64,000 nucleotides of DNA. Source: Candidatus Pacebacteria bacterium GW2011_GWA1_46_10 (GTDB taxonomy: Bacteria; Patescibacteriota; Microgenomatia; UBA1400; PJMF01). The position numbers and the translations under genes were made by a program. The notes beneath the pieces were generated by a model. That model saw only the letters and a list, made by a program, of their open reading frames with translations, did not search any database and was not told the DNA's origin. The number at the start of each line of letters is the position of its first letter. Position 1 is the first letter of the stretch. Positions 48,069 to 53,426 of this stretch are shown here, piece by piece. Location of the stretch: the NCBI GenBank assembly GCA_001002135.1, contig LCLP01000002.1, positions 2,520 through 66,519 of the forward strand, in the 5' to 3' direction.

Positions 48069-48096
48069 TTGACTTTCCTCTGGCCTTTGTTACAAT
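48069..48096 (+). promoter_or_regulatory. sigma70-type promoter for the 16S rRNA (TTGACT-N16-TACAAT)
   Basis: TTGACT (48069-48074) and TACAAT (48091-48096), about 290 nt upstream of the mature 16S 5' end. Confidence 0.55.
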
Positions 48097-48384
48097 ACCT
48101 CCACTTCACAATTCTCGGTTCAAAAACTGAGAATTCTCGGCATTCGCAGATAAGGACTAGCGCCTTTCGCAGGGGCTCATCCTTTTTTCTGGTGAAGCGC
48201 ACTTTAACAAGTAAAGACTCAACAGCACCATCATGATTTCTGAAATAAACATGGTGGTGGAAATGCAAACAATTTGATGGATTTTATTTTGTGTAAAATC
48301 CGTTAATTCCAAATTGATAATTTGAATTGAACTTATTCAGTAAAATGAATGAGAAGGATTCAAACCTCAATAAGTTAAACTTTT

Positions 48385-49888
48385 TTTGAGAGTTTGATCC
48401 TGGCTCAGGATGAACGCTGGCGGTGTGCCTTAGGCATGCAAGTCGGACGGTCCGATTTATCGGACAGTGGCAGACGGGTGAGTAACGCGTAGATATCTGC
48501 CTCAAAGTGGGGAATAGCTCGCCGAAAGGCGGGGTAATACCGCATATACCCTCCGGGGGAAAGCTTTTAGCGCTTTGAGAGGAGTCTGCGTCCTATCAGG
48601 CTGTTGGTGGGGTAATGGCCTACCAAACCGATGACGGGTAGCCGGTGTGAGAGCACGACCGGCCACAAGGTCACTGAGACACGGGACCTACACCTACGGG
48701 TGGCAGCAACCGGGAATATTGCGCAATGGGCGAAAGCCTGACGCAGCGACACCGCGTGTGGGATGAAGTTCTTCGGAATGTAAACTACTGTGGCAGGGGA
48801 AGAATGATGACTGTACCCTGCTAGAAAGCACCTGCTAACTACGTGCCAGAAGCCTCGGTAATACGTAGGGTGCAAGCGTTATCCGGATTTACTGGGCGTA
48901 AAGAGTTCCGTCGGCGGCTGTGTCAGTCACTTGTTCAAACCTGGGGCTCAACTCCAGATCAGCAAGTGAGACTACACAGATTGAGTCTGTTCGGGGAAAC
49001 TAGAATTCTCGGTGGAGGGGTGAAATCCGTTGATATCGAGAGGAATACCAGTCGCGAAGGCGGGTTTCTAGAACAGTACTGACGCTCAGGGACGAAAGCT
49101 TGGGGAGCAAAAGGGATTAGAGACCCCTGTAGTCCAAGCCGTAAACTATGTCTGCTAGTTGCCTGGTCTCCTAAGAACAGGACAACACATGTTTTTAGGT
49201 GACTGGGTGACGTAAGGTAACCCGTTAAGCAGACCGCCTGGGGAGTACGACCGCAAGGTTAAAACTCAAAGGAATTGACGGGGGAGCGCACAACCGGTGG
49301 AGCATGTGGTTTAATTCGATACAAAGCGAAAAACCTTACCTGGGTTTGACATGTACCTGCAAACTCTTGGAAACAAGAGTCTCTTTCGAAGGTGGTACAC
49401 AGGTGATGCATGGCTGTCGTCAGCTCGTGTCGTGAGACGTCCACTTAAGTGTGGTAACGAGCGCAACCCTTGCTGTCAGTTACAAGTGTCTGACAGGACT
49501 GCCCCGCTTTTGGCGGGGAGGAAGGAGAGGACGACGTCAAGTCAGCACGTCCCTTACATCCAGGGCGACACACATCCTACAATGGAGCCGACAATGGGTA
49601 GCGACGAGGCAACTCTGAGCCAATCCTTTAAACGGCCCCTCAATTCGGATTGAAGGCTGCAATTCGCCTTCATGAAGCCGGAATCGGTAGTAATCGCAAA
49701 TCAGCAGGTTGCGGTGAATACGTTCTCGCTCCTTGTACACACTGCCCGTCAAGCCAGCAAAGTCAGCAACGCCCGAAGCGGGTGACCATAACCCTTGTGG
49801 AGTGGCCCTTCTACGGTGAGGCTGGTGATGAGGACTAAGTCGTAACAAGGTATCCGTACTGGAAGGTGCGGATGGATCACCTCCTTTC
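48385..49888 (+). rRNA. rrs: 16S ribosomal RNA (complete, about 1.5 kb)
   Basis: 5' GAGAGTTTGATCCTGGCTCAG through 3' GGATCACCTCCTTT (anti-SD present). Conserved blocks are present throughout (GTGCCAGAAGCCTCGGTAATAC, AAACTCAAAGGAATTGACGG, TGTACACACTGCCCGT). Confidence 0.95.
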
Positions 49889-50007
49889 TAAGGAGTAAGG
49901 GTAGGGGATATCACGACCCCCTTTCTCCCGTCCCGAGTAATCGGGACGAAATAACAAGTCCTGTGATTTTCAATGTCCAGGCCATTTCCACTACCGTGTT
50001 TGAGTCA

Positions 50008-50037
50008 GAGATCTGAACAAAAACCACCGCCAAGGTG
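50008..50037 (+). terminator. intrinsic terminator after the 16S rRNA
   Basis: AAAAACCACC-gccaa-GGTGGTTTTT, a 10-bp perfect stem, followed by a T-run. Confidence 0.7.
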
Positions 50038-50101
50038 GTTTTTTGTCATTTGATAACGTCGTTTGATAGAATAGTAAGTAGTAGTGATCAAAAAAGGAAT
50101 T

Positions 50102-50269
50102 ATGGAAGCCCAAGAACACAGAGCGAAAGCTCTCGAGTCTATCCGTCAGCAAATTGCCGAAGCTAGAGCGAAAATTGTTGATCCAGTCACGCCGCAGGCA
50201 GAAAAAGAAAAACTGGCGAGTAAGGTGCAGGAGTTGCTTAGATCAGCCGATCAATATTCAGAAAAATAA
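50102..50269 (+). CDS. small hypothetical helical protein (55 aa)
   Basis: AAGGA RBS 7 nt upstream of the ATG. The track ORF begins at an upstream GTG (50084). Confidence 0.3.
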   Translation: MEAQEHRAKALESIRQQIAEARAKIVDPVTPQAEKEKLASKVQELLRSADQYSEK

Positions 50270-50274
50270 TTACT

Positions 50275-50587: not shown

Positions 50588-50614
50588 TTAGCACTCGTGT
50601 ATAATGATTGCTAA
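50588..50614 (+). promoter_or_regulatory. CIRCE-type inverted repeat (HrcA operator) overlapping the clpB -10 box
   Basis: TTAGCACTC-gtgtataat-GATTGCTAA versus the consensus TTAGCACTC-N9-GAGTGCTAA (17/18). TATAAT lies in the spacer. The clpB ATG is 2 nt downstream. Confidence 0.65.
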
Positions 50615-50616
50615 TC

Positions 50617-53178
50617 ATGAATTTGAATCGATTTACCACAAAATCCGCCGAGGCCATCCAAGGCTCACTCCAATTGGCAGGCAAAATGAACCATTCAGCC
50701 TTGCACCCGTTGCATTTATTCCTTGTCCTACTGAGTCAAAAAGATGGCTTGATTCCCTCACTGGTGCAAAAACTTGAACAAGACGTCGACGCTCTCCAAG
50801 CAAAAGCAAAAGCAGCACTCACTCAATTACCAGTCACCAGTAGTTCAACCCAAGCGTATGTCTCACCCGAACTACAGCGGGTGTTCGAAGCGGCCGAAAC
50901 TGAGGCGGGCAAACTGCGCGATGAGTACATTAGCACTGAACATCTCCTTCTCGGGTTGCTCAATGACTCCAACATTAAAAAGCTCGTTGATCTTGATAAG
51001 CAAAAAGTGCTCGAAACTCTCAAAGCACTACGTGGCAGCCAGCGAGTGACTGATCCCGATCCAGAAGGCAAGTACCAAGCCTTGGAAAAATACACCCAAG
51101 ACTTCACTGAGTTAGCGCGGCTAGGCAAAATCGACCCAGTCATCGGGCGGGATGAAGAAATTCGCCGCATTACTCAAATTCTTTCTCGCCGCACCAAAAA
51201 CAATCCTGTGTTGGTGGGGGAACCGGGTACCGGCAAAACCGCCATCGTGGAAGGATTGGCCAAAAAAATCATTGACAACGACATCCCGGACGCGCTGAAA
51301 AACAAACGGGTTCTCAACTTGGATATGGGGGCACTGATTGCCGGGTCTAAATACCGCGGTGAGTTTGAGGATCGGCTGAAAGCGGTCATTAAAGAAGCGG
51401 AAGCTTCCGAAGGACAAGTAATTCTCTTTATTGATGAACTGCACACCATCGTTGGAGCTGGTGCACGGGAAGGCTCCACCGACGCCGGCAACTTACTCAA
51501 GCCTGCGCTCGCCCGCGGTCAGTTGCGCACCATCGGCGCGACGACCTTGAAAGAATACCGCAAATACTTGGAAAAAGACGCCGCACTCGAACGACGTTTC
51601 CAACCGATCATGGTCGAAGAACCTTCGGTGGAAGATGCCATTTCAATTCTACGCGGGATTAAAGAAAAATACGAAACTCACCACGGGGTCAAGATCCGTG
51701 ACAATGCACTGGTAGCCGCCGTGAAGTTATCTGATCGGTATATTGCCGATCGATTCTTACCCGACAAAGCCATTGATCTAATGGATGAGGCTGCTGCCGG
51801 TATCAGGATCGAGATCGACAGCAAACCCACCGTGATTGATCAGCTGGAGCGCAAAATTCGCCAATTGGAAATCGAAAAAACAGCTCTCAAAAAAGAAAAA
51901 GATCAAGCAAGTAAAGACCGCCTCAAGGAAATTGAAAAACAACTGGCCGAGTTCAACGAGCAACACAAACAACTGGAGCTGCACTGGCAAGCTGAGCGGC
52001 AAGCGATCGATAAAATCAAGCAGTCCAGCAAGGAAATCGATGAGTTGAAAGAGCAAGCCGCCCAAGCCGAACGCAACTACGATCTACAAAAAGTGGCCGA
52101 GATTAATTACGGCAAGATCCCGGCCCTGGAAAAACAGATTAATGAGGCCAAAAAAGAGTTGAAAAAAGTCCAGAAAGACCGGCAAATCCTCAAAGAAGAA
52201 GTGACGGAAGAAGACATCGCCGCAGTGGTGTCCCGCTGGACCGGCATTCCGGTGCAAAAAATGCTGGAGGGTGAGAGTGAGAAGCTCACCAAACTAGAAG
52301 AGGAAATCGCCAAACGAGTAATTGGTCAAAAACCAGCCGTCACCGCGGTGGCCAACGCTATCCGCCGCAACCGTGCCGGTATTGGTGAAACCAGTCGGCC
52401 AATCGGCTCGTTTATTTTCCTTGGGCCCACTGGGGTAGGGAAGACTGAACTGGCTAAAACCTTGGCCGAAGTCTTGTTCAACGACGAAAAAATGATGATT
52501 CGCATTGACATGAGTGAGTACATGGAAAAGCATTCCGTCGCTCGACTCATCGGCTCGCCGCCAGGATACGTCGGTTACGAAGAGGGTGGTCAGCTGACCG
52601 AAGCGGTGCGCCGACATCCGTACTCCGTAATTTTGTTTGATGAAATCGAAAAAGCTCACAGTGACATCTTCAATACTTTGCTGCAAATTCTCGATGATGG
52701 TCAACTGACCGATAGCAAGGGAAGAACCGTCAATTTCAAAAACGCTGTTGTTATCATGACCTCTAATCTTGGCAGCGACGTGATCGCCCAGGAACAAGGT
52801 GAGCCTGACAAACAAGCAGAAACTATTCACAAACTGCTCAAAGAACATTTCCGTCCAGAATTCTTAAACCGCATTGATGACATCATCATCTTCCAACCGC
52901 TGACTCAGGCTGAACTTACCCAAATCGTCGCCCTCCAGTTGAAAGATGTGGAACAGCGCTTGGCGCAGAAAGAAATCAGGCTGACCGTGGCACCCAAGTT
53001 GATCGAGCATTTCGCCACCGCTGGGTATGACGAAGTCTTTGGCGCCCGGCCGATGAAGCGACTGATTCAATCTGAACTCTTAGACACCCTGTCCATGGAG
53101 ATTATCCAGGGCAAACTAAAAGAAGGTGCCACTGTCAAAGCTGACTTTGACGGTCGGAAAATTACTCTCAAGTCATAA
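50617..53178 (+). CDS. clpB: ATP-dependent chaperone ClpB
   Basis: N-domain, two AAA+ modules ([15 protein letters not shown] and [15 protein letters not shown]) and a long coiled-coil middle domain between them. The presence of the middle domain indicates ClpB rather than ClpA/C. Confidence 0.9.
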
Positions 53179-53205
53179 AAATAATGGTACAATACTGACT
53201 CTAAT

Positions 53206-53279
53206 GGGTGTGTAGCTCAGGTGGTTAGAGCGCTGTCCTGATAAGACAGAGGTCCCATGTTCGAGTCATGGCATACCCA
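53206..53279 (+). tRNA. tRNA-Ile (anticodon GAT)
   Basis: Acceptor gggtgtg/catacccac-region, D-arm agctcaggtggttagagc, anticodon arm ctgtc-ctgataa-gacag (GAT), T-arm ggtcc-catgttcgagt. Confidence 0.85.
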
Positions 53280-53327
53280 CTAGTATTAAATTCGACTACG
53301 AACAATTAGAGCGTCCAGCCAAGCGAA

Positions 53328-53359
53328 AAGATCCCATGTTTGCAGTCTGCGCTACCCAC
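53328..53359 (+). repeat. degenerate 32-nt copy of the tRNA-Ile 3' end (T-arm plus acceptor)
   Basis: AAGATCCCATGTTTGCAGTCTGCGCTACCCAC versus tRNA GAGGTCCCATGTTCGAGTCATGGCATACCCAC. Followed by TTTTTT. Confidence 0.5.
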
Positions 53360-53426
53360 TTTTTTAACCTTGCTATTTAGCAGACGAAGCGATAGAATGC
53401 CAATCGAATCATAAGGATCAGCAGTT

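Follow-up and report, generated by a model that had tools for sequence, protein, structure and literature searches.

In this study, we analysed a stretch of 64,000 nucleotides (nt) from Candidatus Pacebacteria bacterium GW2011_GWA1_46_10, an uncultivated groundwater organism (contig LCLP01000002.1, positions 2,520 to 66,519), which is referred to as the window. Its 16S ribosomal RNA (rRNA) gene is followed by two small open reading frames (ORFs), the disaggregase gene clpB, tRNA-Ile(GAT) and the protease gene lon. We believe that this locus is very probably the single-copy-type 16S of Pacebacteria, which belong to the Microgenomates branch of the Candidate Phyla Radiation (CPR, or Patescibacteria), and that it is now an independent transcription unit. 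The tRNA-Ile behind clpB is supported as a positional relic of the 16S–23S spacer, because the orders 16S-Ile-Ala-23S-5S, 16S-Ile-lon and 16S-clpB-Ile-lon form a series. The features that bear on these two points are the following.

48069-48096 (+): predicted 16S promoter, TTGACT-N16-TACAAT with a TG extension, 10 of the 12 consensus positions
48202-48217 (+): boxA-like leader motif CTTTAACAAGTAAAGA, an antitermination box by resemblance
48231-48265 (+): predicted processing stem, 5' strand, in the leader (RNAcofold)
48382-49887 (+): 16S rRNA gene, 1,506 nt, intron-free, full length by Rfam RF00177
49983-50016 (+): predicted processing stem, 3' strand, in the 16S trailer (RNAcofold)
50019-50043 (+), to 50048 with the T-run: terminator-like hairpin, 10 bp stem and 5 nt loop
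53185-53193 (+): predicted extended -10 promoter TGGTACAAT, read from the sequence, 12 nt upstream of tRNA-Ile
53206-53280 (+): tRNA-Ile(GAT), between clpB and lon (ARAGORN, Rfam)
57545-61753 (-): DUF2298, PMT and TIM genes; a UvrD-type helicase gene follows this block

Identity and source of the 16S rRNA gene

The Rfam scan of the 64 kb window returned one full-length small-subunit rRNA and eight tRNAs. The 16S scored 1431.7 bits against RF00177, where the gathering score is 50, and covered the whole covariance model (positions 1-1533); no intron was found in this full-length alignment. In the V5 area, one helix is expanded to 30 nt at approximately 49168-49197, against 5 nt in the Rfam model (829-835). 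The ClpB protein is an exact match to KKU18092.1/KKU84581.1 of Candidatus Pacebacteria GW2011_GWB1_47_8 / GWA1_46_10, for which the NCBI phylum is Minisyncoccota, that is, CPR/Patescibacteria. An earlier reading of the letters alone (the sequence-only reading) had suggested such an origin, and the exact ClpB match bears it out. The genome classification and the pattern of primer mismatches are both in keeping with a 16S of the Microgenomatia type. In addition, 22.5 kb of the window are identical to NCBI contig LCOV01000002.1 (523 kb, GCA_001003265.1), and the locus is base-for-base the same in one NCBI contig, two JGI contigs and one ENA contig. Because these identical contigs belong to separate assembly records, a chimeric join at the 16S locus is very unlikely.

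Contigs and loci compared with the window carry L-numbers as labels (for example L010). One of them, L004 (GCA_003524865.1, DQGQ01000014.1), is otherwise identical to the window and has 121 mismatches within its positions 1-150, which correspond to window positions 49711-49860. The mismatches begin at the contig start, in the 3' region of the 16S (window 49711-49733 for the first 15 positions listed), and probably mark a chimeric assembly junction in that contig.

A probable stand-alone 16S transcription unit

A stand-alone 16S precursor is possible, because a predicted promoter, leader, stem and terminator are all present before clpB. In a scan of 47800-53500, the predicted 16S promoter was one of five joint-top sigma-70-like sites (10/12), and a -10 of the type TGnTACAAT is common to it and to tRNA-Ile. 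The boxA-like motif at 48202-48217 occurs once in the window, with 0 expected by chance, and near-identical motifs lie in the leaders of L151, L124, L190, L150 and L203. It resembles the boxA of E. coli, which we take to be TGCTCTTTAACAA. The conserved leader motif CTTTAACAAGTRAAGA, single in the window, stands upstream of the processing stem, and its likeness to boxA is judged against that E. coli sequence.

According to RNAcofold, 48231-48265 and 49983-50016 form 32 base pairs that bracket the 16S. Homologues of the stem in eight loci have a common helix of 22 pairs, with compensatory changes in 16 of these; the long complementarity of leader and trailer and the covariation are those of an RNase III-type processing stem. 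The terminator-like hairpin starts three bases past the stem. Its 10 pairs, loop of 5 nt and T-run agree with the 10-bp-stem terminator that the sequence-only reading had placed after the 16S. Fifteen loci, the window among them, were scanned for an equivalent hairpin with T-run; 12 have one 120-240 nt behind the 16S, and none was found in L151, L204 and L113.

We propose that a leader of approximately 280 nt, started by the strong sigma-70 promoter at 48069-48096, would hold the 5' strand of the long processing stem as well as the boxA-like antitermination motif. The 3' strand of the stem would lie approximately 96-130 nt past the mature 16S 3' end, with the intrinsic terminator at 50019-50048 directly after it. 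No 23S would then be needed for a 16S precursor to be made, to end at the terminator and to be cut out at the RNase III-type stem. Promoter function, terminator function and RNase III processing at the 16S are predicted here from sequence signals.

Separation from the 23S rRNA gene

No large-subunit rRNA was found at the Rfam gathering threshold in the 48,381 nt upstream or the 14,113 nt downstream of the 16S, and no 5S rRNA at this threshold in the 64 kb window. Looking up the UvrD-type protein near the window end gave a further 10 kb of this genome (L087), with genes for FemAB, an amino-acid kinase, GAPDH, trigger factor, IF3, L35, L20 and PheS/T. The genes of L087 are tightly packed, no gap would fit a 23S, and Rfam detected no rRNA in these 10 kb, where one tRNA is the sole RNA gene; a 23S just past the window end, which the sequence-only reading had named as a possible refutation, is therefore not there. 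Upstream of the window, the extension reached contigs of at most 5 kb and did not locate the 23S.

Downstream of lon, the plus-strand genes PEGA/SH3 and SIMPL are followed by the minus-strand block at 57545-61753. Co-transcription of the 16S with a distant 23S is excluded, because three minus-strand genes lie downstream. Brewer et al. call rRNA genes unlinked when the closest 23S is more than 1,500 bp away from the 16S 3' end (bioRxiv 10.1101/705046 / ISME J 2020), and Lui et al. when the distance exceeds 2 kb and opposite-strand genes intervene (PMC8172020). The 16S of the window is unlinked in both senses, in the second through the block at 57545-61753 together with the terminator at 50019-50043. 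The split rRNA operon of the sequence-only reading is thus supported, with no 23S in 48 kb upstream or approximately 24 kb downstream and a terminator after the 16S.

tRNA-Ile(GAT) as a probable relic of the spacer

The tRNA-Ile(GAT) lies 3,318 nt past the 16S 3' end, on the same strand. A genome-collection scan with ClpB as the query gave three species-level relatives, whose ClpB is 69-79% identical, and in all of them tRNA-Ile(GAT) lies behind clpB. Lon and PEGA are also downstream of tRNA-Ile in L010 and L008. The 16S 3' end of L010 is 473 nt upstream of clpB, and its 16S fragment is 92% identical to the window 16S; L008 begins exactly at the 16S trailer. L007, L008 and L010 are metagenome-assembled genomes from the GTDB collection and bear the title 'uncultured Pseudomonadales bacterium', which looks mislabelled.

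A metagenome scan for the 16S variant CTTGTACACACTGCCCGTCA gave at least 120 loci (L090-L209), and gene orders were compared for the loci 75-93% identical to the window 16S. L095 and L175, seemingly close relatives in which other genes lie downstream, were set aside, since the overlap is limited to the final 245-336 nt of the 16S and leaves their relatedness uncertain. Across both scans, the orders were as follows.

16S-clpB-Ile-lon: L151, L158, L010 and L008; in part L146 (16S to clpB start) and L007; ClpB 68-86% identical
16S-Ile-lon-PEGA: L190, L124 and L162, with 194 nt, 0.9 kb and 1.15 kb between 16S and tRNA-Ile
16S-Ile-Ala-23S-5S, complete and canonical: L203; 16S-Ile-Ala-23S: L111, L204 and L113

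The tRNA-Ile of the window has the anticodon GAU and lies downstream of the 16S on the same strand, and its ortholog stands between 16S and 23S in the four canonical loci, so the description of it as a displaced spacer tRNA in the sequence-only reading holds. In L183, tRNA-Ile(GAT) is likewise directly behind the 16S (150-350 nt). The gene mnmA is upstream of the 16S in the window, in the canonical-order L203, in the unlinked L162 and L190, and also in L183. Since mnmA is next to the 16S in linked and unlinked relatives alike, we believe that the 16S stayed put and the Ala-23S-5S block separated from it. The distance from tRNA-Ile to tRNA-Ala in L203, approximately 790 nt, is unusually long for a spacer.

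In 13 of 16 loci, a motif TGnTAnnnT precedes tRNA-Ile by 19-27 nt; in L008 it stands at -56. A reverse-strand ORF separates clpB from tRNA-Ile in L010, where the extended -10 moves with the tRNA. We propose that tRNA-Ile(GAU) stayed on the 16S side of the break and would be driven by its own extended -10 promoter. The gene clpB, preceded by lineage-specific small ORFs, would then occupy the interval between the 16S terminator and the tRNA promoter, with lon after the tRNA.

Small ORFs, clpB, lon and CIRCE-like operators

The interval from the terminator to lon contains the following features; CIRCE is the controlling inverted repeat of chaperone expression.

50102-50269 (+): putative small ORF A, 55 amino acids (aa), with an AAGGA Shine-Dalgarno sequence, called as a gene in L001-L006
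50275-50460 (+): putative small ORF B, 61 aa, exact sequence on 27 contigs
50588-50614 (+): CIRCE-like repeat TTAGCACTC-N9-GATTGCTAA, abutting the clpB start codon, with TATAAT in its spacer
50617-53178 (+): clpB disaggregase, 853 aa (Pfam Clp_N, AAA, AAA_lid_9, AAA_2, ClpB_D2-small)
53370-53403 (+): predicted lon promoter TTGCTA-N17-TAGAAT and, in overlap with it, a weaker CIRCE-like repeat, TTAGCAGAC-N9-GAATGCCAA (promoter and repeat scans)
53427-55832 (+): lon protease, 801 aa (Pfam LON_substr_bdg, AAA, Lon_lid, Lon_C)

The two small ORFs that had been noticed between 16S and clpB are present, and a promoter is predicted upstream of ORF A at 50043-50072. Neither ORF has a Pfam family, and ORF B is the sole member of its 90% cluster. 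No homologues of ORF A or ORF B were found in the spacers of relatives, and the small ORFs at the same position in L146, L124 and L008 have no detectable similarity. The small ORFs were thus ruled out as a conserved part of the unit.

The repeat before clpB matches 17 of 18 positions of the CIRCE consensus, which we take to be TTAGCACTC-N9-GAGTGCTAA, and the copy before lon is degenerate (14/18 against the same consensus). Two CIRCE-like matches were found in the window, where 0.15 are expected. The core TTAGCA-N15-TGCTAA is kept upstream of clpB in L007, L008, L009, L010 and L146, and an exact TTAGCA-N15-TGCTAA is found upstream of lon in L008 and L010. The inverted repeat therefore stands at the promoter or 5' untranslated region of both clpB and lon and is kept in relatives, as in an HrcA-CIRCE operator. 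In the sequence-only reading, clpB was called CIRCE-controlled. The operator is present at 50588-50614, and the control, for clpB as for lon, is suggested by the operator sequence. Repression by an HrcA-type heat-shock regulator, independent of rRNA synthesis, would be implied by CIRCE-type operators over the clpB and lon promoters. Our literature search found nothing on HrcA in CPR.

In Mollicutes (Mycoplasma), the HrcA-CIRCE heat-shock regulon includes clpB and lon. The window is similar to this system in that the inverted repeat lies over or just after the clpB and lon promoters in a reduced genome, whereas in the clade of the window only the outer hexamers TTAGCA...TGCTAA are kept.

A TTG start of clpB at 50608 is not on record, and the called start is the ATG at 50617. 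This ATG is 2 nt past the CIRCE repeat in the window and in L146, with no Shine-Dalgarno sequence. Since a Shine-Dalgarno is absent and TATAAT lies inside the repeat, the clpB mRNA could be nearly leaderless in these two loci. In L007 and L010, the clpB leader is approximately 30-40 nt long and carries AAGGAG.

Universal primer sites

Four primer targets were located in the 16S gene.

48843-48861 (+): 515F site GTGCCAGAAGCCTCGGTAA, two mismatches (C522A, G527U)
49116-49135 (+): 806R target ATTAGAGACCCCTGTAGTCC, three differences from E. coli and one from degenerate 806R/806RB
49734-49750 (+): 1391R target, one mismatch (C1400U at 49743, an unpaired decoding-site position)
49837-49858 (+): 1492R target, one mismatch (A1508U, compensated by U1527A in helix 45)

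We read the divergence at the universal sites as a set of Microgenomatia lineage signatures: most changes are compensatory swaps that keep the rRNA helices intact, and two, U793G and C1400U, are single-stranded. C522A and G527U form one compensatory swap, because the Rfam structure line pairs the two positions. The sole mismatch to 806R/806RB is U793G in the unpaired 790 loop; the other two differences are in compensated pairs covered by the degeneracy. The EUB338 target has three mismatches, two of which are a compensated pair, and the 341F site has one. The mismatch counts of the sequence-only reading for 515F, 1391R and 1492R and its altered 338-341 region were all reproduced. Its three mismatches to the 806R target stand against the E. 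coli sequence and are reduced to one against the degenerate 806R/806RB.

Studies have shown that the original 515F/806R pair has approximately 1% perfect-match coverage of Microgenomatia in silico (PMC10943839), in agreement with the predicted under-amplification in surveys of variable region 4 (V4). Of the revised primers, 515F_Mod carries degenerate bases at its positions 8 and 13, and 806R_Mod carries one at its position 14 (Hu et al. 2024, PMC10943839; V4-EXT, PMC13271367). 515F_Mod / V4-EXT and 806R_Mod have no mismatch to the window at both V4 sites. The mismatch positions are the same as in these two publications, and nothing substantive differs: the gene is a typical Microgenomatia-type template, and the structural reading of the 522-527 swap and of the U793G loop change adds description only.

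C1400U is also present in the relative L010. It was ruled out as a CPR-specific hallmark, being a recurrent variant in several lineages: the metagenome scan described above gave at least 120 loci, and most of those listed combine canonical 515F and 806R sites with an identity of only 67-72% to the window 16S. We found no literature on C1400 in CPR.

Alternative explanations

The locus could be one long operon, with clpB, tRNA-Ile and lon in a giant spacer and a far 23S co-transcribed. The 16S, clpB, tRNA-Ile, lon, PEGA and SIMPL do share the plus strand, the leader has a boxA-like antitermination motif, and Lui et al. report CPR operons joined via tRNAs and ORFs (PMC8172020). However, the 23S was not found within approximately 24 kb downstream, minus-strand genes occupy 57545-61753, the 10 bp terminator follows directly behind the processing stem, and clpB, tRNA-Ile and lon each have a predicted promoter of their own, so that we consider a long operon highly improbable. 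The proximity of tRNA-Ile to the 16S could also be coincidental, the tRNA never having been the spacer tRNA of this 16S. We regard this as improbable as well. In relatives, the tRNA is 150-350 nt behind the 16S both with the 23S (L203, L111, L113) and without it (L190, L205), intermediates with inserts of 0.9-1.1 kb exist (L124, L162), and chance placement on the same strand within 3.3 kb is estimated at approximately 0.2-0.3% for a genome of approximately 1 Mb. These points outweigh the distance of 3.3 kb, the separate promoter of the tRNA and the fact that its usual partner, tRNA-Ala, was not found in the window.

Conserved rRNA repeats are places where metagenome assemblies misjoin, and the 16S might have been attached to the clpB-lon region in this way. 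L003, L004, L005, L008 and L010 break inside or beside the 16S, and the approximately 120 mismatched bases in the 16S 3' end at which L004 opens have the look of a chimeric junction. Nevertheless, L001, L002 and L006, three assemblies identical to the window, each run through the complete 16S into both flanks, the junction of 16S trailer, terminator and clpB recurs in the diverged L010, L146, L151 and L158, and the flank sequences covary across the 16S; an assembly artefact is therefore extremely improbable. It is just as hard to believe that the gene is a decaying or non-functional copy whose changes at universal positions are damage. Positions 522/527, 793, 1400 and the 338 region are usually regarded as invariant and are changed here, but the gene scores over the full length of the Rfam model, hardly any of its pairs are non-canonical, and the helix changes are compensatory. 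Among the matches listed, the A522/U527 type is found in 17 loci and the identical 806 site in 9, and published primers redesigned for Patescibacteria carry degenerate bases at just the positions altered here. Conservation extends to the promoter, the boxA-like motif and the processing stem.

A possible stepwise break-up of the operon

The spacer was compared in loci with tRNA-Ile within 700 nt of the 16S.

Microgenomatia-type (A522/U527) loci: hairpin and T-run in 5/5, extended -10 before the tRNA in 4/5
Loci with a canonical 515F site: hairpin and T-run in 0/21, extended -10 before the tRNA in 0/21

L111, a fragment with the canonical gene order, has both the hairpin with T-run and the extended -10 in the spacer between 16S and tRNA-Ile. 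A terminator/promoter junction is thus predicted in the spacer of still-linked relatives. We tentatively propose that the operon broke up stepwise in this Microgenomatia clade, with transcriptional uncoupling before, and permitting, physical unlinking, and we give this account a little short of an even chance. In the first step, with the order 16S-Ile-Ala-23S-5S as yet unbroken (L203, L111), an intrinsic terminator and a tRNA promoter would have arisen in the 16S–tRNA-Ile spacer. In the second, the Ala-23S-5S block would have separated, leaving 16S-Ile-lon. In the third, the terminator/promoter junction, by then neutral, would have served as an insertion site for small ORFs or the CIRCE-regulated clpB. 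The direction of these steps is suggested by the comparison of present-day gene orders.

Several points weigh against the main reading of the locus given above. Loci with and without clpB interleave in the neighbour-joining trees of Lon and 16S, deep nodes are unsupported, and the trees are simple ones, partly made from fragments. Because of this interleaving, one clpB insertion with three losses and repeated insertion are not separable. The segments for the covariation of the processing stem were chosen by complementarity, which biases the pair counts, so that the covariation is supportive and not rigorous. The terminator, promoters, boxA and processing stem are predictions. The 23S, 5S and tRNA-Ala were not located in the approximately 86 kb of the genome covered in all. 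The scan for hrcA took in approximately 30 of 60 window ORFs and no other part of the genome, and it found neither the gene nor an HrcA domain.

Neighbouring genes

Between mnmA and the 16S promoter, 47886-48050 (+) is a highly charged ORF of 54 aa (MIRNIEQEEPE...RKRRTRYWQRYRRLIRKIN). It is overlapped by an ORF of 151 aa at 47813-48268 (-), and gene callers disagree on which is coding; neither has a Pfam family. Just upstream of mnmA, 43498-46687 encodes 7TM transglutaminase-associated, ATP-grasp (ATPgrasp_ST/RimK-like) and MATCAP-family proteins, a three-gene cluster that is partly syntenic in L183. A transglutaminase-core protein is encoded at 39990-41873. An ORF of 662 aa at 25911-27899 (-) has no Pfam match at E <= 1e-5.

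Relation to known systems

For CPR/Microgenomatia, the literature already describes unlinked rRNA genes as well as the failure of V4 primers. Lui et al. (2021) found unlinked rRNA genes in 27 of 34 circular CPR genomes, with 16S–23S distances of 2.9-9 kb and larger in Microgenomatia (PMC8172020), and the trait is clade-specific and concentrated in small genomes (10.1101/705046, PMC8172020). The view of the sequence-only reading that an unlinked 16S and primer mismatches are typical of CPR/Patescibacteria is in line with these studies and with PMC10943839. Similarly to the genomes of Brewer et al. and Lui et al., the window has its 16S apart from the 23S, with protein genes and opposite-strand genes between. 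These papers classify by distance, and the 23S of this genome is more than 24 kb away. In the two papers, we found no statement on the genes in the gap, on tRNA-Ile staying with the 16S or on terminator and promoter signals within the spacers of still-linked relatives. Two things are modestly new here: the comparative series, and the terminator/promoter junction predicted for those spacers.

Split rRNA operons have also been listed for Rickettsia, Buchnera, Wolbachia, Thermus, Helicobacter and Mycoplasma gallisepticum (PMC8172020). A stand-alone 16S unit in a small or streamlined genome is common to Rickettsia, Buchnera and the like and to the window. In contrast to them, the window belongs to another phylum, its split is of independent origin, and intermediate stages of the break-up can still be seen in close relatives.

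For surveys, the locus is one more lineage missed by 515F/806R, which the revised primers already address, and long-read amplicons of the 16S–23S 'operon' cannot recover such lineages, as is also in the literature. The tRNA-Ile beside clpB and lon may be seen as a positional fossil of the old operon. The comparative series suggests that the spacer was a terminator/promoter boundary before the genes separated physically. If this is true, it would outline a concrete and testable way in which rRNA operons come apart, and would add modestly to the question of how and why they do so in streamlined genomes.

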